A stretch of 5,122 nt of DNA from a virus. Shown piece by piece: positions 1 through 5,122 of this stretch (its first letter is position 1; each line of letters opens with the position of its first letter). The DNA is taken from positions 1-5,122 of the IMG/VR virus record IMGVR_UViG_3300045988_078885; one strand, 5' to 3'. A program made the translations under genes and the position numbers. The notes under the pieces are model-generated. The model made no database searches, had not been told where the DNA came from, and was given only the letters and a program-made list of their open reading frames with translations.

Positions 1-55
1 CCAATCTAAACTTTTATCTAAACGACAACCAATACATTGACCACAGGGAACCTTA
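1..55. repeat. Terminal redundancy. Bases 1-55 are identical to 5068-5122, marking the wrap point of a circular 5067-nt genome.
   Basis: Compared base by base: ccaatctaaacttttatctaaacgacaaccaatacattgaccacagggaacctta occurs at both ends. A 55/55 match at both termini of a ~5-kb sequence encoding Microviridae proteins is the signature of a linearised circle. Confidence 0.9.
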
Positions 56-165
56 ACTTCAAAATCTCGCAAACCTTCACTGATATTAAAAACGACAGGC
101 CACTTACCATCAGGCGTCTTTCCATGAGCTGAACGCCAACCAGTAATAGGACAAAAACACGTCAT
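1..165 (-). CDS. Replication initiator Rep/VP4, N-terminal part. The ATG is at 165..163; the ORF continues across the circular junction into 5067..4207. Reconstructed N-terminus: MTCFCPITGWRSAHGKTPDGKWPVVFNISEGLRDFEVKVPCGQCIGCRLDKSLDWAGRCIQESTLWEHNYFLTLTYDD...
   Basis: Extended by hand upstream of the ORF-track start (TTG at 5019) in the same frame through 5122 = 55 and on to an in-frame stop at 181-183. The only ATG in the extension is at 163-165. It contains the CxxC...CxxC-like PCGQCIGCRL segment and the FLTLTY rolling-circle motif I, both typical of gokushovirus VP4. No SD: the upstream sequence is CACCCTTTTTTTT-ATG. Confidence 0.85.
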   Translation of the reverse strand, partial: MTCFCPITGWRSAHGKTPDGKWPVVFNISEGLRDFEVKVPCGQCIGCRLDKSLDW

Positions 166-195
166 AAAAAAAAGGGTGTTTCACGTGAAACACCC
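166..195 (-). terminator. Perfect 22-bp palindrome GGGTGTTTCAC|GTGAAACACCC (174-195) followed on the minus strand by T8 (166-173). Rho-independent-terminator-like, ending 0 nt before the Rep ATG.
   Basis: Reverse complement of gggtgtttcac = gtgaaacaccc (checked). The run of eight A on the plus strand at 166-173 is a T8 on the coding strand directly 3' of the hairpin. Confidence 0.6.
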
Positions 196-234
196 AATCA
201 AAAGGAAGAGAAATGAAAAAGACATCGGCTTCAA

Positions 235-354
235 TTATAACCGAATACCTCCTCGAAGCGGTCGGGCGTCATTCTTTTTGCGGTGCCGCATAGCGGTTTT
301 CGTAAAAAGAGCTTTGCTCTTCCGACGGGAGATCTTCTTTCGAAACTTACTCAT
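235..354 (-). CDS. Small highly basic DNA-binding protein (Microviridae J / gokushovirus VP8-like), 39 aa: MSKFRKKISRRKSKALFTKTAMRHRKKNDARPLRGGIRL
   Basis: Hand-translated minus-strand ORF, ATG at 354..352 and TAA at 237..235. A strong SD (GAGGAGAA) lies 6 nt upstream. About 41% K/R, no acidic stretch. It sits between VP2 and Rep. It is too short to appear in the supplied ORF track. The overlapping plus-strand ORF 176..373 is its antisense shadow. Confidence 0.6.
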   Translation of the reverse strand: MSKFRKKISRRKSKALFTKTAMRHRKKNDARPLRGGIRL

Positions 355-443
355 GGTTTGTTCTCCTCAATAAAACCAATGAATTGAAGAACAGCCTTAA
401 AAATCTCGGCCACGTAAGAAAAAAACTGGTCAATAAACTCCAT
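351..443 (-). CDS. Hypothetical 30-aa peptide MEFIDQFFSYVAEIFKAVLQFIGFIEENKP. Its TGA overlaps the ATG of the J-like gene (ATGA).
   Basis: Hand translation: ATG 443..441, stop 353..351. The stop-start overlap ccATGAgt suggests translational coupling, and the SD of the J-like gene is encoded inside its last codons (att GAG GAG AAc). It has no SD of its own. The strand is T-rich, so an F-rich ORF may arise by chance. Confidence 0.25.
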   Translation of the reverse strand: MEFIDQFFSYVAEIFKAVLQFIGFIEENKP

Positions 444-446
444 TAT

Positions 447-530
447 TTAAAAACCGCGAATAAAAAAGTAAATCAAACCAACAAAAACAACAAGACCGAA
501 AAGCCAAGACAAAAAACTAACGCTTCCCAT
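447..530 (-). CDS. Hypothetical 27-aa single-pass transmembrane peptide MGSVSFLSWLFGLVVFVGLIYFFIRGF. Its start overlaps the VP2 stop. Candidate lysis/membrane peptide.
   Basis: ATG 530..528, TAA 449..447. Sequence context atgggaagcgtTAGt: the VP2 stop TAG lies 9 nt inside this ORF. A GGTGG SD-like element sits 2 nt upstream. About 20 contiguous hydrophobic residues are followed by a basic R. Caveat: the T-rich strand favours hydrophobic codons by chance. Confidence 0.3.
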   Translation of the reverse strand: MGSVSFLSWLFGLVVFVGLIYFFIRGF

Positions 531-1137
531 TGCCACCAGACTCAAAAAAACGATCTGCTAAATCACGAAGACGCTTCAATTCTGAAGCTGACGAAGCATT
601 CTCTGTGATACCAGAAAGAATACCAGCAAGACCACCAACGCCAGGAAAAGCATCATTAGCTTTTTTAATACGAAAAGTCAAAGGATTGTCATCCCAAAAT
701 CGATTTTCACGATACAAAGAATAAGCATTCTCAGAATTTATGACAGCCTGAAGACGATTAGCATTGGCAATAGCTTCTTGAGCAAAACGTTGGTCTTCCT
801 TAAGCTCCGTATCCTTCTTAATGTTATCAATTTCAGCTTTCTGTTTGTTAAGAAGATTTTGCATCTGCAAACCTTGAAAAGCAGAAGAAGCAACATCAGG
901 CATCTGAACAGCAGAACCACCAGCATTAAGACCACCGGTCGAAGCACCTTGGTTAGCAGAAAGAATGGGATTAAGACCGGCCTTACGAAGGTCGTCAACC
1001 TCCCATTGATGGCGATTCTGCATCGCCTCTTTCTGCCATAGCCAATTATGGTACTGGGAAAGGTAGTTGAAGCGGTAGTTTCCATAACCTTGAGCAGCCG
1101 AAGAAGCAGCACCGACAACAGCACCAATCCAAGACAT
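517..1137 (-). CDS. VP2 minor capsid / DNA pilot protein (gokushovirus-type), 206 aa.
   Basis: ATG at 1137..1135, preceded by an AAGGAG SD at a 5-nt spacing (ttctAAGGAGtagttATG). Gly/Ala/Gln/Asn-rich with the KAGLNPILS motif characteristic of gokushovirus VP2. Starts 9 nt after the VP1 stop. Confidence 0.8.
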   Translation of the reverse strand: MSWIGAVVGAASSAAQGYGNYRFNYLSQYHNWLWQKEAMQNRHQWEVDDLRKAGLNPILSANQGASTGGLNAGGSAVQMPDVASSAFQGLQMQNLLNKQKAEIDNIKKDTELKEDQRFAQEAIANANRLQAVINSENAYSLYRENRFWDDNPLTFRIKKANDAFPGVGGLAGILSGITENASSASELKRLRDLADRFFESGGNGKR

Positions 1138-1146
1138 AACTACTCC

Positions 1147-2808
1147 TTAGAAATGATCAACCAAACCAGGTGTCGCATAAATCGGCATCGGTCTAACGCA
1201 TTTCATTTTAAAGAAACAATCACAAATGATAGGCGGTTCGTCAGTAACCGCAACCACTCTTTCAATCGGTGTATTGTCCCGAATGAACTCACCGTTAAGA
1301 ACAGGAAGCTGATCAAACTTTTCGGCGAGATGCCACACATCAAGCGGCGTACTGGACGTCGAGCGAAGTTGACCAGTGATCATCGACTGATGGTACCGAT
1401 ACTCAGCATAACGCTCTTGGTAACCGAAGACCTTGTCGTCATCTGCAGTGCCTTGGAAATAAATTTCCTTGTTGAGAATCGCTTGCTCACCAAGGTGAGC
1501 CAGAGCAGGCCAATAGAAGTCCCAACGGCCTTTACGACTCCACATGCGCGGAAGACCTTGCTGATACGTGAGATCGGACTGCACACAACAAAAACCGATA
1601 ATCCAACCGTGTTCGACAAACGACTTAGTGAAAGCATGACGAACATCCATGCCAACACCATAAGCTGCCAAGTTACCTTGGGGCGTAGTAGCAGAATCAG
1701 CCGTGCCACTAGTCTGTTGGACAGGGTTAATGTTGATGTGCGAACGACCACCACCGAGATACTCGGGGCGTTGGAGGCGAGCATCGGGAGAAACCACGCC
1801 GAAATGGGAGCGGAGAATTTCGATATAACGTGTGCCGCCGCGAGCGTCACGCTCCATCAACTTCTGGAGTTGGAATGCCTGACGAAGATCATTAATACTA
1901 ATAGGCGTTGCTTCAGAAAGATCTACAGTACCAGAACCAGATGCAGACAAACCAGAGGCATACGACAAAGCGTAACTGTCTCCAGTCTGACCAATATGAA
2001 CAGCCTGATCACCAAGACTAGAAACAGACAAATTATCAGCAACAACAGTAACGCGATTACGATTAAAAGTAAGATTGCCAGAAGAAACGATATCAATATC
2101 GTTGACAACTGCAGGAACAGAACCGCCTAAAGAAATCTCAACACCAGGGCCTTTCTGAGGCCACGGAAGTGCACTCGTAAAGTAATCATGGAACTTAGCA
2201 ACGGGCGGGGGCTCAGATCCGTAAGTCAAAGGATTATCAACATTGGTACCAGAAATAGCCGCATCACCTACAAACTCGCGGTCCGTAGTCTTGTCGATGT
2301 TATAAGCATCCTGCAAGTTTTGATCTCGAAACCACTCGTTCCAAATGAGCGAGATGCAACGAAGCGGAAGCTCCGTCATCTTGCAATCAGCATTGACATT
2401 AACAGGCAAACCAAGGTAATCACCAATAGTCCCAATTTGAAGATTATTAAGCGTAGCCTCGGGGACAAGATAATCAGTAGAAGCAGTGGGACCAGATCTC
2501 TGGTCTCCATTAAGAGCTTCCCAATGATTCCAAACCAATCGGTTAGGAACAAAGAAAAAAAACGTTCGAAGGTACAAATTATCCATGAAAGGCACGATCG
2601 GAGTGGAAAGACGTGCCAAAAGGGAGGCGGTCACATTGAAAGTATCGCCTGGGAGTACCTCATCAATGAAAATCGGGATGAGCTTGCCAGTCTTGAAAGC
2701 CGTCTTGTGATCAAAGTCACGCTTCAAAACTGAACGAGGAATACTCACCTTCGGGAGCTCGACAAATTGGCGAGCAGGATTGCCGTAACGAACAGTAGTT
2801 TTTGACAT
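1147..2808 (-). CDS. VP1 major capsid protein (phiX174 F-like jelly-roll, gokushovirus-type), 553 aa.
   Basis: The N-terminus ...PRSVLKRDFDHKTAFKTGKLIPIFIDEVLPGDTF...FMDNLYLRTFFFFVPNRLVWNHWE... matches the conserved gokushovirus VP1 N-terminal block. The length is typical (~550 aa). SD GAGGTGA lies 8 nt upstream of ATG 2808. Confidence 0.95.
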   Translation of the reverse strand: MSKTTVRYGNPARQFVELPKVSIPRSVLKRDFDHKTAFKTGKLIPIFIDEVLPGDTFNVTASLLARLSTPIVPFMDNLYLRTFFFFVPNRLVWNHWEALNGDQRSGPTASTDYLVPEATLNNLQIGTIGDYLGLPVNVNADCKMTELPLRCISLIWNEWFRDQNLQDAYNIDKTTDREFVGDAAISGTNVDNPLTYGSEPPPVAKFHDYFTSALPWPQKGPGVEISLGGSVPAVVNDIDIVSSGNLTFNRNRVTVVADNLSVSSLGDQAVHIGQTGDSYALSYASGLSASGSGTVDLSEATPISINDLRQAFQLQKLMERDARGGTRYIEILRSHFGVVSPDARLQRPEYLGGGRSHININPVQQTSGTADSATTPQGNLAAYGVGMDVRHAFTKSFVEHGWIIGFCCVQSDLTYQQGLPRMWSRKGRWDFYWPALAHLGEQAILNKEIYFQGTADDDKVFGYQERYAEYRYHQSMITGQLRSTSSTPLDVWHLAEKFDQLPVLNGEFIRDNTPIERVVAVTDEPPIICDCFFKMKCVRPMPIYATPGLVDHF

Positions 2809-2840
2809 CTTTAGGTCACCTCATTGGAAATTCGGTGTCA

Positions 2841-2875
2841 CCTCACACAGTTACATCAAGATTAACTGTGTGAGG
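2841..2875 (-). promoter_or_regulatory. Perfect 13-bp inverted repeat (cctcacacagtta / taactgtgtgagg) with a 9-nt loop, in the VP3-VP1 intergenic space.
   Basis: Arms 2841-2853 and 2863-2875 are exact reverse complements. It begins 1 nt after the VP3 stop (2877-2879). No T-run follows on the coding strand, so this is not a classic terminator. More likely an mRNA-stability or processing hairpin, or an ssDNA structural element. Confidence 0.55.
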
Positions 2876-2876
2876 T

Positions 2877-3293
2877 TCAAACCGCAGGTTCCTGAGTCGG
2901 AACTGCGGGCTGGGTTTCAGGTTCAGCAGCTGGTTTTGAGGGACTCAAATCGCCTGCAAGTTGTTTCTTAGCGGCTTCCTCAACCAAAGACTCGACCCAA
3001 AGGCGAGGGTCGTCTTGGAATTCACGGCGTTTGTCCGCGGGAAGTTCCGCAAACGTGGCATTGACCGCAAGAATCTTATTGAGCTGTTCCTGATAATCAC
3101 CGACATCGCTGACATCCAAATGCACAGCGGCAGACGCGCGAGCGGGATCACCGAGCAAACCAGTCGCACGGTAACGCTTCAAGTAATAATCGATTGTTGT
3201 CTGAGGGTACTCAGACTGCACCGTCATTGACGGCTTCTTGTAAGTCGTGCCCTTGGAGGGCACACGAGCCGAATAGCGATCTTTAAACTTCAT
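2877..3293 (-). CDS. VP3 internal scaffolding protein (gokushovirus-type), 138 aa from ATG 3293. The ORF track extends it to a GTG at 3347.
   Basis: The central segment ...FAELPADKRREFQDDPRLWVESL... resembles the conserved LPAxVRxxFxNxP...L block of gokushovirus VP3. The C-terminus is acidic/Pro-rich. ATG 3293 has a GAGGA SD 9 nt upstream and overlaps the 3' end of the upstream ORF (ATGAAGTTTAA). Confidence 0.7.
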   Translation of the reverse strand: MKFKDRYSARVPSKGTTYKKPSMTVQSEYPQTTIDYYLKRYRATGLLGDPARASAAVHLDVSDVGDYQEQLNKILAVNATFAELPADKRREFQDDPRLWVESLVEEAAKKQLAGDLSPSKPAAEPETQPAVPTQEPAV

Positions 3294-3549
3294 CTTCCAA
3301 ATCCTCACCGACAAAAGTGAAATCGCACCATTCAGAAATGGCAACACCGTCTTCGTAAAAACGACGCTTTCTTAAACTTACGCTTTCTTTACTAGAAAGA
3401 ACAGCATGGGTCACATCTTTCGCCATCGGGTGTCGCGCAACCATACGACCCGCCTTTGTGGCGGCTCCGCGGAATGATTCAGCCGCGAGATGCACGCACG
3501 CTAATTTATATACGCCGTGCCAAATCGACAAACTGTATAAGCTAACCAT
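3283..3549 (-). CDS. Hypothetical protein, 88 aa, with an acidic C-terminus (EDLEDEV). Translationally coupled to VP3.
   Basis: ATG 3549..3547 with a strong SD AAGGAGA 6 nt upstream. Its stop TAA (3285..3283) falls 8 nt after the VP3 ATG. I do not recognise any family. Confidence 0.55.
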   Translation of the reverse strand: MVSLYSLSIWHGVYKLACVHLAAESFRGAATKAGRMVARHPMAKDVTHAVLSSKESVSLRKRRFYEDGVAISEWCDFTFVGEDLEDEV

Positions 3550-3561
3550 GGACTCTCCTTA

Positions 3562-3604
3562 GCTTTTGTTTCACAAAAGCGCGGGGCCCCCCAAGGCCCC
3601 CCGC
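3562..3604 (-). promoter_or_regulatory. Tandem hairpins: AT-type gcttttgt-ttc-acaaaagc (3562-3580) and a GC-rich gcgggg...ccccgc element (3581-3604). On the coding strand the GC hairpin is followed by TTTTGTG.
   Basis: Reverse-complement checks: cttttgt/acaaaag, gcgggg/ccccgc, and the internal self-complementary ggggcccc. On the minus strand the order is GC hairpin, then TTTTGTGAAACAAAAGC, then the SD of the 88-aa ORF. This is terminator-like and would have to be leaky. Confidence 0.5.
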
Positions 3605-3638
3605 ACGTCAACGCTCGCCTGCGGCCTCGCTGGAGGCT

Positions 3639-3848
3639 CTACGCATGACCAACAACGTCACAAATAAACGAATCATTCTTGACAAGACAATAAAACAATT
3701 TGTCAACATCTTTGTCATAAAAGAAATAACCAACTAAACGGCCTTGAGCTACCGCGCGGGAAAGCCCGCTTGGTGCCTCGATTGCGCCGCTTCGCTGGGC
3801 TCGTCGAGGTCGATTTTTTTCCGCCTTCGGCGGCTTTCCATCAGACAT
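3639..3848 (-). CDS. Questionable 69-aa basic ORF (MSDGKPPKAEKNRPRRAQRSG...) running through the hairpin-rich non-coding block. Probably not coding.
   Basis: The ATG at 3848..3846 overlaps the stop of the 110-aa ORF (ATGTCTGA). The N-terminus is K/R-rich. The Ala/Gly-rich middle is encoded by GC hairpins (3755-3833), and the AT block carries promoter-like hexamers. A second J-like protein is unlikely given the 39-aa candidate with the strong SD. Confidence 0.2.
   Translation of the reverse strand: MSDGKPPKAEKNRPRRAQRSGAIEAPSGLSRAVAQGRLVGYFFYDKDVDKLFYCLVKNDSFICDVVGHA
3755..3833. promoter_or_regulatory. Cluster of GC-rich hairpins: gcggg-aaag-cccgc (3756-3769); cctcga...tcgagg (3776-3809) followed by a plus-strand T7 (3814-3820); ccgcc-ttc-ggcgg (3821-3833).
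   Basis: All stems were verified by reverse complement. On the plus strand a hairpin followed by a T7 run resembles a rho-independent terminator. In ssDNA these would form stable stem-loops. This is the largest non-coding stretch of the genome. Confidence 0.5.
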
Positions 3849-4173
3849 TTTTCTCAACCTTATTAGAAGAGGATGCTTTCGCAAGTTCAGAAGCGAAACG
3901 TTCAGCCTTAAGAGCAGAAATGCGAGCCTCAACACCGGTCATGATTTGAACACGATTAGTGGATTCATCTTCATTCTGGAAAATGGAGCCAGTGCCCTCA
4001 TAAAAGGCACCAAGACACCAAAGATCAAAATCTTCAGGATTGCGAGAAATGACAGTGCGTGCGTCACGACAAAGATCGACAAAACTGCGCTTGGCAAGAT
4101 CGTGATTGACACAGAAAAAAGGCGTGTTGTATGACTGAGCCTTTTTGTCATAAACGCTATACAAAAACTGCAT
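3841..4173 (-). CDS. Hypothetical protein, 110 aa from ATG 4173, in the VP5 position immediately downstream of Rep.
   Basis: The ATG at 4173..4171 is preceded by TGAGGT and a 6-nt spacer (gagTGAGGTtttttATG). The ORF track starts it at a GTG at 4185. Begins 33 nt after the Rep stop. Assignment as VP5 is by position only. Sequence: MQFLYSVYDKKAQSYNTPFFCVNHDLAKRSFVDLCRDARTVISRNPEDFDLWCLGAFYEG... Confidence 0.55.
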   Translation of the reverse strand: MQFLYSVYDKKAQSYNTPFFCVNHDLAKRSFVDLCRDARTVISRNPEDFDLWCLGAFYEGTGSIFQNEDESTNRVQIMTGVEARISALKAERFASELAKASSSNKVEKNV

Positions 4174-4206
4174 AAAAAACCTCACTCAACATAATAGTAG
4201 TTGTGG

Positions 4207-5122
4207 TCACTCAAACGTACGTTTGAGAGCTTTTGCCGTGTATTCCTTTGCCTCACGGCGGGCAATCAGCCGAGACTGCTCATTGTCTAAAGAGCTCTCA
4301 GCTTTCTTAGCGATTATAGCACGCTTAGCTTTGTAATCGAAGTAGGCTTTCTTGTTAAGCTTAAAGAGCTTATCCAAATAGTAGCGCGGAACGCTATGCT
4401 TCTTCCCATTGATGAGAACGAAGCCAAGGCGTTCAATGTCCTCACGGTTTTTAATGAACCAATTAAAGCCAATGCCTGGACGGTTGCTACAGCGGGAAAA
4501 CGGGGGAAGGCGCGTACCGTAATAATCAGCGGCAGGATCGCCATAGATTTTCTTGGTCGTATAGCGCGCAACGTAACCAGCTGATTCAGCAGTAACAGAA
4601 CCGATAATCACATTACCATGACCCCAAATACGCTCAAGCCAAGCGGACCGAAACAAAGGGGAACCATCGGAGCCCATACCGTAATAGAGCAAATCCGGAA
4701 TGTCCAAGTTAAAAACAATCGCATGATAGTGCGGGCGACCTCCTTTATCACCATACTCGCCAGAAGCGAAATAACGAATGCTATTCACAAGCGTTCGTTT
4801 ACCGTCAACGATCTCATAAACTGGCTGGCGACCAAGTCCGCCAGCAAGTAAATCTTCGGAATTCAAAGGCGCAAAAACAGACTTACGCAAACGCTTCCAA
4901 AAAAGAGTGAGATGCAAAGGAATCAAACCACCATCGTCGGGGCGATCTGTACGATAACAAAAAGACGGATCTTGAAAAGACTTAACAGGAGTCCTCTCAT
5001 CATCATAAGTCAAAGTCAAAAAATAGTTATGCTCCCAAAGAGTACTTTCTTGAATACAACGACCTGCCCAATCTAAACTTTTATCTAAACGACAACCAAT
5101 ACATTGACCACAGGGAACCTTA
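4207..5122 (-). CDS. Replication initiator Rep/VP4 (rolling-circle HUH endonuclease), C-terminal 304 codons within this window. The true start lies beyond the window end, at position 165 after the circular wrap.
   Basis: Motif I FLTLTY (about 5005-5022). Motif II HYH in GRPHYHAIVFN (4723-4731; checked, cactatcat on the coding strand). Motif III YVARYTTKK (about 4561-4575), comparable to phiX174 gpA YVAKYVNKK. The ORF has no ATG until residue 116 but stays open upstream across 5122/1. Confidence 0.9.
   Translation of the reverse strand, partial: KVPCGQCIGCRLDKSLDWAGRCIQESTLWEHNYFLTLTYDDERTPVKSFQDPSFCYRTDRPDDGGLIPLHLTLFWKRLRKSVFAPLNSEDLLAGGLGRQPVYEIVDGKRTLVNSIRYFASGEYGDKGGRPHYHAIVFNLDIPDLLYYGMGSDGSPLFRSAWLERIWGHGNVIIGSVTAESAGYVARYTTKKIYGDPAADYYGTRLPPFSRCSNRPGIGFNWFIKNREDIERLGFVLINGKKHSVPRYYLDKLFKLNKKAYFDYKAKRAIIAKKAESSLDNEQSRLIARREAKEYTAKALKRTFE

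Follow-up and report, generated by a model that had tools for sequence, protein, structure and literature searches.

A probable VP8 (ORF8) homologue encoded by a 39-codon basic open reading frame between VP2 and Rep of a metagenomic gokushovirus genome

VP8 of gokushoviruses is an arginine- and lysine-rich polypeptide analogous to protein J of phage phiX174 (PMC11281519), and J is described in the same report, citing Hamatake et al. 1985, as needed for DNA packaging. In the cryo-electron microscopy (cryo-EM) density of SpV4, VP8 residues 9–38 were built on the inner capsid surface of both full and empty capsids; close to the 2-fold axis, a hydrophobic pocket of VP1 takes up the C-terminal residue, and the N-terminal 14 residues are ordered in DNA-filled particles only (PMC11281519). 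A band of the expected VP8 size was reported for purified SpV4 virions (PMC11281519). VP8 of ΦEC6098 is also located on the capsid interior, where its C-terminal 10 residues were built (PMC11281519; PDB entry 8DES, chain E). In all microvirus structures solved so far, VP8 and J superpose in their four C-terminal residues (PMC11281519; supporting discussion in PMC12328618). Here, we describe a 5,122-nucleotide (nt) stretch of the IMG/VR virus record IMGVR_UViG_3300045988_078885 (positions 1 to 5,122, referred to as the window). An open reading frame (ORF) of 39 codons on its minus strand, located between the genes encoding VP2 and Rep (VP4), very probably encodes the gokushovirus protein VP8 (ORF8), a highly basic DNA-binding protein of the virion interior with a length of 39 residues.

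The ORF was found as the first-pass annotation of the window had described it, that is, as a lysine/arginine-rich minus-strand frame of 39 amino acids (aa) preceded by the Shine–Dalgarno (SD) sequence GAGGAGAA at a distance of 6 nt. Its translation is MSKFRKKISRRKSKALFTKTAMRHRKKNDARPLRGGIRL. The protein contains eight lysines, eight arginines, and one histidine versus a single aspartate, and has an isoelectric point (pI) of 12.0 and a net charge of about +15. Of the 89 stop-to-stop segments with 30 aa or more that the window contains, it has the highest combined lysine and arginine fraction. With 48 ORFs of 30 aa or longer in the window, the length of 39 codons alone is unremarkable; the ORF is regarded as non-random because of its homology, synteny, and purifying selection, not because of its length. 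The gene was also called, without a name or a Pfam match, on three ENA contigs that carry the identical protein.

The ribosome-binding site had been named the best one in the genome. It is indeed the strongest among the real gene starts, with an anti-SD duplex energy of −9.3 kcal/mol, but this is a near-tie: VP5 (start at 4173) and an 88-aa ORF (start at 3549) both have −9.1 kcal/mol, so that the lead is 0.2 kcal/mol, followed by VP2 (−8.6 kcal/mol) and VP1 (−6.9 kcal/mol). Among all 517 ATG, GTG, and TTG triplets on both strands, the VP8 start ranks approximately fourth or fifth. The strong SD fits a protein required in capsid-like amounts. In nearly all related loci, VP8 is likewise preceded by a strong SD (−8 to −11.5 kcal/mol). 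An SD-like sequence is also present inside the gene: the codons of R34-G35-G36 (CGA GGA GGT; window positions 240–254, minus strand) make a perfect internal GAGGAGGT. At −13.0 kcal/mol (scored for the TTG at 234), its duplex with the anti-SD is stronger than any other in the genome; it is probably an incidental by-product, since relatives use other codons for the RGG motif.

Since basic peptides can match one another by composition alone, homology was assessed using a leave-out hidden Markov model (HMM) built from Chp2 ORF8, phiMH2K ORF8, and ΦEC6098 VP8 only. This profile search against the microvirus VP8 family, which the first-pass annotation had proposed as a check, yielded a match: the window ORF scored 33.9 bits (E 2.8e-10) among 136 open window segments, and the E value of the runner-up segment was 0.38. 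Composition-preserving shuffles of the protein (2,000) scored −0.7 ± 2.4 bits and at most 12.3 bits, and none of them equalled the real score. A phmmer search against PDB matched one chain, 8DES_E, a 39-aa "Putative DNA binding protein", which is VP8 of ΦEC6098; the alignment covered residues 1–39 of both proteins (E 5.9e-4). In addition, phrog_10695 matches the window protein over the whole 39-position profile (E 9.7e-12). This family is labelled "unknown function"; the label can be regarded as an annotation gap because ΦEC6098 VP8 (E 1.6e-10) and Chp2 ORF8 (E 5.8e-19) match the same PHROG. A Pfam scan of VP8 gave no match at E up to 1. The VP8 profile did not retrieve an SpV4 VP8 chain from PDB at E up to 10, and a regular-expression search for SpV4 VP8 in NC_003438 with translation table 11 did not find it either, probably because Spiroplasma reads TGA as tryptophan.

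An alignment of 19 family members shows no variation at F17, R34, G35, G36, and R38 and very little at R5, S13, and N28. The window protein, which ends in RGGIRL, has the following features of the family: a size of 37–44 aa, a pI of about 12 or more, a central phenylalanine, and the C-terminal motif RGG[IVFL]R[LFIM]-COOH. The earlier suggestion of a small DNA-binding protein packaged with microvirus single-stranded DNA (ssDNA) is thus backed, as far as membership in the VP8 family is concerned, by the leave-out HMM, 8DES_E, and phrog_10695. Judging by these sequence comparisons, the ORF is a true gokushovirus VP8/ORF8 homologue and a real gene. It is a new, so far unnamed member of a well-known family and adds no change to known microvirus biology.

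The gene and its position are conserved in relatives. A tblastn search found the C-terminal two-thirds of VP8 in 49 microvirus records; approximately 31 of the 40 matches listed had no annotated feature under the match, and a few were annotated as "DNA binding protein". Using VP2 as bait, 47 related IMG/VR loci were collected. In 41 of them, the strand of VP2 also carries a VP8-like ORF of 37–42 aa, which follows the VP2 match at a distance of a few hundred nt, and one further locus contains a VP8 copy truncated by the contig end (42 of 47 in total). The other five loci are uninformative, since the contig boundary lies 233–689 nt past the VP2 match. The absence of a small basic ORF at this position in relatives had been named beforehand as an observation that would speak against the assignment; the ORF is present in 42 of the 47 loci. 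Its placement between VP2 and VP4, which the first-pass annotation had proposed, agrees with the gene order of ΦEC6098.

The identical protein MSRRRHKLSRKASKRIFRKGASRTKTLNTRATPMRGGFRI is encoded by 23 of the 41 full-length VP8 ORFs (loci within L008-L048, mostly from metagenome 3300045988). The contigs encoding it differ in length and flanking DNA, and VP8 appears to be unusually conserved within this group.

For the analysis of selection, the window VP8 gene was codon-aligned with six GenBank relatives. The three ENA contigs encoding the exact 39-aa protein represent one genome and were therefore left out, and the more distant GenBank relatives were used. In the VP8 sense frame, the proportion of synonymous differences (pS) is 0.56–0.97, which is near saturation, whereas the proportion of nonsynonymous differences (pN) is 0.11–0.24 among close relatives; the pN/pS ratio is 0.13–0.33. 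In the comparison with KT264806, the contrast between pN and pS has a Fisher p value of 1.6e-11. The VP8 sense frame is under strong purifying selection.

A role of the protein in the virion can be proposed on the basis of its relatives. The VP8 gene closes the structural block VP3-VP1-VP2-(small ORFs)-VP8 and would be translated efficiently from its strong SD. During packaging, the protein would enter the procapsid along with the freshly synthesised ssDNA circle. The basic N-terminal arm of VP8 (residues 1–31, containing 14 lysines and arginines) would bind and neutralise the phosphate backbone, and its C-terminal PLRGGIRL would tether the genome to the shell by inserting into a hydrophobic pocket that VP1 forms on its inner face. 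With the 60 copies of an icosahedral virion, the net charge of +15 would offset approximately 18% of the 5,067 phosphates; for comparison, phiX174 J reaches 13% and ΦEC6098 VP8 22%. The virion location and the C-terminal anchoring in VP1, shown for relatives, would extend to the window VP8, because the decapeptide that is ordered in ΦEC6098 is identical at 8 of 10 positions (ARPLRGGIRL in the window versus ARSMRGGIRL in ΦEC6098) and VP1 is 52% identical to that of ΦEC6098 (PDB 8DES_A). The VP1 identity to Gokushovirus WZ-2015a (KT264806) is 69%. By analogy with the relatives, the window VP8 would also bind DNA, be present in a similar copy number, and enter the particle with the DNA; the composition of the protein and the example of phiX174 J suggest that it may bind ssDNA and may be needed in packaging.

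Several points weigh against this assignment. The virus is known from metagenome assemblies alone, the family is unnamed in Pfam and in PHROG annotation, and the GenBank/RefSeq label of Chp2 ORF8 (NC_002194, 3010-3144) and ΦEC6098 vp8 (NC_048874, 4355-4474) is "nonstructural protein". The role of gokushovirus VP8 has itself been deduced from its position in capsid maps and from the analogy with J, and no direct DNA-binding assay is cited (PMC11281519, PMC12328618). VP8 of ΦEC6098 is ordered for its last 10 residues only (PMC11281519); the VP8 protein of phage Ebor is wholly unresolved (PMC12328618), and the presence of VP8 in empty SpV4 capsids makes entry with the DNA and entry before the DNA both possible (PMC11281519). 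The "nonstructural protein" labels, as well as the location of the VP8 gene immediately upstream of Rep with a hairpin alone between them, could imply that the peptide is a nucleic-acid-binding regulator, acting for example on Rep translation or on the switch to ssDNA synthesis, and is not packaged. We consider this very improbable, given that VP8 with side-chain density was built inside the SpV4 capsid and the C-terminal 10 aa were built in ΦEC6098 (PMC11281519; 8DES chain E), that purified SpV4 virions contain a band of VP8 size (PMC11281519), and that the VP1-contacting C-terminal motif, the most conserved part of the family, is present in the window protein. The "nonstructural protein" label is at odds with the cryo-EM localization of VP8 inside the virion (PMC11281519) and appears to be a legacy annotation. 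An additional regulatory role of VP8 beside packaging is possible. The same stretch can also be read on the opposite strand, where a 65-aa ORF, longer than that of VP8, overlaps the gene, and its pN/pS ratio is also lowish (0.22–0.59). It is scarcely conceivable, however, that this ORF is the real gene and the 39-aa frame its chance antisense image. In-frame stops within the VP8 overlap close the 65-aa ORF in KT264806, MG945721, and MG945320, and pN/pS is lower in the sense than in the antisense frame in all comparisons among close relatives. The GTG start of the 65-aa ORF lies inside the hairpin, and, judged by the 20 nt upstream, this start is not among the 15 out of 517 candidates with the strongest SD-like pairing. 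Finally, it would be the sole gene on the plus strand, with all recognised genes of the genome and of its relatives on the opposite one; microvirus genes all face one direction (PMC9239249). The low antisense pN/pS was rejected as a sign of a plus-strand gene, because the antisense frame shares its third-codon positions with the constrained VP8 and is interrupted by stops in relatives. The plus-strand frame is, as had been proposed, an antisense image of VP8.

The identification as VP8 leaves the relationship of the family to protein J to be considered, since the peptide had been introduced as a "J/VP8 analogue". It proved to be a homologue of VP8, whereas for phiX174 J the term analogue alone is appropriate. 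VP8 could still be a true but highly diverged homologue of J, the two forming one superfamily by common descent. Both have approximately 25–44 aa, a very basic N-terminus, and a short Gly-Gly tail with a hydrophobic last residue (RGGIRL versus VGGQQF), and the structures agree in the four C-terminal residues, which fill the same buried pocket in the homologous capsid proteins VP1 and F (PMC11281519). On the other hand, none of the 19 VP8 members matches Pfam Microvir_J at E up to 10, and hhalign comparison of the VP8 profile with a J profile (phiX174, G4, and alpha3) gave a probability of approximately 1% and 2 aligned columns. The gene position also differs, J being directly upstream of the capsid gene F and VP8 following VP2 and preceding Rep. 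Common descent seems rather doubtful to us, and sequence comparison of peptides so short and compositionally biased does not decide for or against it. From the alignments, the accurate wording would be "analogue of J, homologue of VP8".

The window carries a 55-nt direct repeat at both ends (1-55 = 5068-5122), the usual sign of a circular contig assembled with an overlap, and hence the genome is a circle of 5,067 nt. Three ENA samples yielded independent assemblies of this genome, each linearised at a different point; two of the copies are identical, and one has a single mismatch. These independent assemblies indicate that the sequence is real and circular. Thus, the window is a complete circular gokushovirus genome of 5,067 nt with a 55-nt assembly overlap. 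In a megablast search of the whole window against GenBank phages, a 72-nt match in VP4 alone was found, and no close annotated relative was detected at the nucleotide level. Every recognisable gene of the window is on the minus strand, and the gene order is VP4-VP5-VP3-VP1-VP2-VP8; no D, E, or G genes were found in the window by Pfam and PHROG scans. The coordinates of the features are given in Table 1.

Table 1. Features of the 5,122-nt window around and beyond the VP8 gene (positions refer to the window).
Feature	Position	Strand	Description
VP8/ORF8 gene, 39 aa	354..235, including the stop codon	-	ATG 354-352, TAA 237-235
N-terminal basic arm of VP8, residues 1-31	262..354	-	14 lysines/arginines and H24; putatively ssDNA-contacting and charge-neutralising, by comparison with SpV4 VP8 and phiX174 J (PMC11281519)
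C-terminal tail of VP8, PLRGGIRL, residues 32-39	238..261	-	Putative anchor in the hydrophobic VP1 pocket; R34, G35, G36, and R38 invariant in 19 members
Shine–Dalgarno sequence of VP8, GAGGAGAA	361..368	-	6-nt spacer CAAACC to the VP8 ATG; located within the 3' end of ORF30, which precedes VP8
65-aa ORF antisense to VP8 (shadow ORF, no gene)	176..373	+	No match in Pfam or PHROG; closed by stops in three of five distinct relatives
Perfect 22-nt palindrome GGGTGTTTCACGTGAAACACCC (195..174) and T8 (173..166)	166..195	-	Terminator-like; terminator scan and fold
ORF30, 30 aa, amphipathic, MEFIDQFFSYVAEIFKAVLQFIGFIEENKP	351..443	-	TGA overlaps the VP8 ATG as ATGA
27-aa ORF, single-transmembrane-like peptide, MGSVSFLSWLFGLVVFVGLIYFFIRGF	447..530	-	Overlaps the last 14 nt of VP2; 32 aa in the ORF listing, which starts it at a TTG (545)
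VP2 pilot protein	1137..517	-	Matches to several PHROG families with the annotation "pilot protein for DNA ejection"
VP1 capsid	2808..1147	-	Pfam Phage_F, E 3e-163
VP3 scaffold	end at 2877	-	Pfam Chlamy_scaf
88-aa ORF	3549..3283	-	Strong SD AAGGAGAG, −9.1 kcal/mol; no family match
69-aa ORF	3639-3848	-	Called on ENA contigs; no family match
VP5	4173..3841	-	Pfam Phage_ORF5
Rep/VP4, 341 aa	165..1 joined to 5067..4207	-	Pfam REP_ORF2-G2P, phrog_942; 341-aa Rep also called on the three ENA contigs of the same genome

The Rep/VP4 gene is split by the window ends, so the ORF listing shows only a truncated 270-aa version of it from an internal TTG. The 88-aa and 69-aa ORFs are located between VP5 and VP3, and a hypothetical protein is annotated at the equivalent position in Dulem virus 149.

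Two small ORFs lie immediately upstream of VP8. In seven relatives (MG945721, MG945320, KT264806, Dulem virus 149, and the IMG/VR loci L067, L068, and L070), a homologue of ORF30 overlaps VP8 by 4 nt as in the window. The pN/pS ratio of ORF30 is 0.13–0.36 (Fisher p 7e-6). No Pfam or PHROG family was found for ORF30, and it has no SD of its own (−2.4 kcal/mol). ORF30 is read as coding because of the purifying selection and the overlap kept in the seven relatives; it is probably a real, unnamed, clade-specific gene. The product of the second ORF, a 27-aa peptide resembling a single transmembrane (TM) segment, has a grand average of hydropathy (GRAVY) of 1.9. Similar TM-like peptides are encoded at the same position in L068 (MGSLSIEHWIIGLVVGFLFLAWLVKSIFK), KT264806, L067, L070, and Dulem virus 149, and such a peptide is absent at this position in MG945320 and MG945721. 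No lysis gene has been identified in gokushoviruses (PMC7062461), and a membrane-active function of the 27-aa peptide can be suggested speculatively. One could go further and place VP8 at the distal end of a mini-cassette with translational coupling, VP2 -> 27-aa TM peptide -> ORF30 -> VP8, in which the two upstream peptides would be unrecognised gokushovirus proteins, for example putative membrane-active lysis/egress factors or assembly cofactors, delivered in step with VP8. We regard such a cassette as unlikely; VP8 has a strong SD of its own, which bears on its coupling to the upstream ORFs.

Downstream of VP8, the region preceding Rep folds with an energy of −17.4 kcal/mol. The T8 run lies directly next to the start codon of Rep (ATG at 165), a gene that lacks an SD. 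An identical palindrome follows VP8 in KT264806, L067, L068, and L070, even though the synonymous sites of VP8 are saturated, and in Dulem virus 149 a hairpin of another sequence with a T9 run occupies the same place. In IMG/VR, there were five matches to the palindrome, of which L066 and L069 were set aside as unrelated GC-rich contigs. No Rfam family was found for the hairpin or elsewhere in the window. The hairpin looks like an intrinsic terminator that would end the structural transcription unit and throttle Rep, and a sequence-specific role of the palindrome is possible. It is reminiscent of the T_J terminator located after gene J in phiX174.

The gain from these results is mainly in annotation quality: with VP8 recognised, the six-gene core of the genome is complete. 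VP8 is a core gokushovirus gene, and its absence from an annotation is not new biology. It is left unannotated in most GenBank microvirus records because it is below the common ORF-length cut-offs, has no Pfam model, and carries a PHROG label of "unknown function". A simple diagnostic can be offered, namely a 37–44-aa peptide that ends in RGG[IVFL]R[LFIM] and whose gene immediately precedes Rep on the coding strand. The small conserved hydrophobic ORFs and the hairpin before Rep could matter more for gokushovirus gene expression and for the unsolved question of lysis.

When comparing the window VP8 with protein J of the Bullavirinae phages phiX174, G4, and alpha3 (PF04726, Microvir_J), similarity in general design can be noted. 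J is a small basic peptide packaged with ssDNA, and its C-terminus lies in a capsid pocket (PMC11281519, PMC12328618), a role that the window VP8 would share. The proteins are also close in size and charge: J has 24–38 aa, with a net charge of +12 in phiX174, and the window VP8 has 39 aa and a net charge of +15. However, the C-terminal motif of J is GARLWYVGGxQ[FY] and that of the window protein is PLRGGIRL, so that Gly-Gly and a hydrophobic last residue alone are in common. J is encoded between the D/E genes and F, whereas the window gene is located between VP2 and Rep. The orientation in the capsid differs as well, since the N-terminus is directed towards the 2-fold axis in phiX174 and towards the 5-fold axis in SpV4 (PMC11281519).

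ORF8 of the Chlamydia phage Chp2 (NP_054652) and ORF8 of the Bdellovibrio phage phiMH2K (NP_073546) are nearer to the window protein. They are basic peptides of 38–44 aa with the invariant phenylalanine and the C-terminal MRGGIR[LF], and the phiMH2K ORF8 record is labelled "putative DNA binding protein; similar to phiX174 J". Their identity to the window VP8 is 41–44%, and the gene order is different: ORF8 is located after VP3 and before ORF4 in Chp2, and after VP5 and before Rep in phiMH2K. Rep is nevertheless the downstream neighbour of VP8/ORF8 in the window, Chp2, and phiMH2K alike.

VP8 of ΦEC6098 (YP_009859313), an Enterogokushovirus phage of Escherichia, also has 39 aa, aligns with the window protein end to end, contains 16–17 basic residues, and bears RGGIRL. 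The six-gene order VP4-VP5-VP3-VP1-VP2-VP8, with VP8 as the last gene, is the same (PMC7062461). The differences are that the identity of the peptides is approximately 47% and that VP8 of ΦEC6098 starts 2 nt after the VP2 stop codon, whereas two small hydrophobic ORFs separate the genes in the window. ΦEC6098 itself is a dif-integrating temperate phage of Escherichia.

The closest sequences, with 79–85% identity, are the "DNA binding protein" of Dulem virus 149 (XCD04075.1) and the homologues in KT264806, MG945561, MG945721, and MG945320. The latter four are unannotated, and those of MG945721 and MG945320 start with GTG. In Dulem virus 149, VP2 is followed by a 29-aa ORF, by the 38-aa "DNA binding protein", which shares 4 nt with this ORF, and by Rep. 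The closest relatives thus have the same local layout as the window: VP2, a small ORF with a 4-nt overlap, VP8, a hairpin with a T-run, and Rep.

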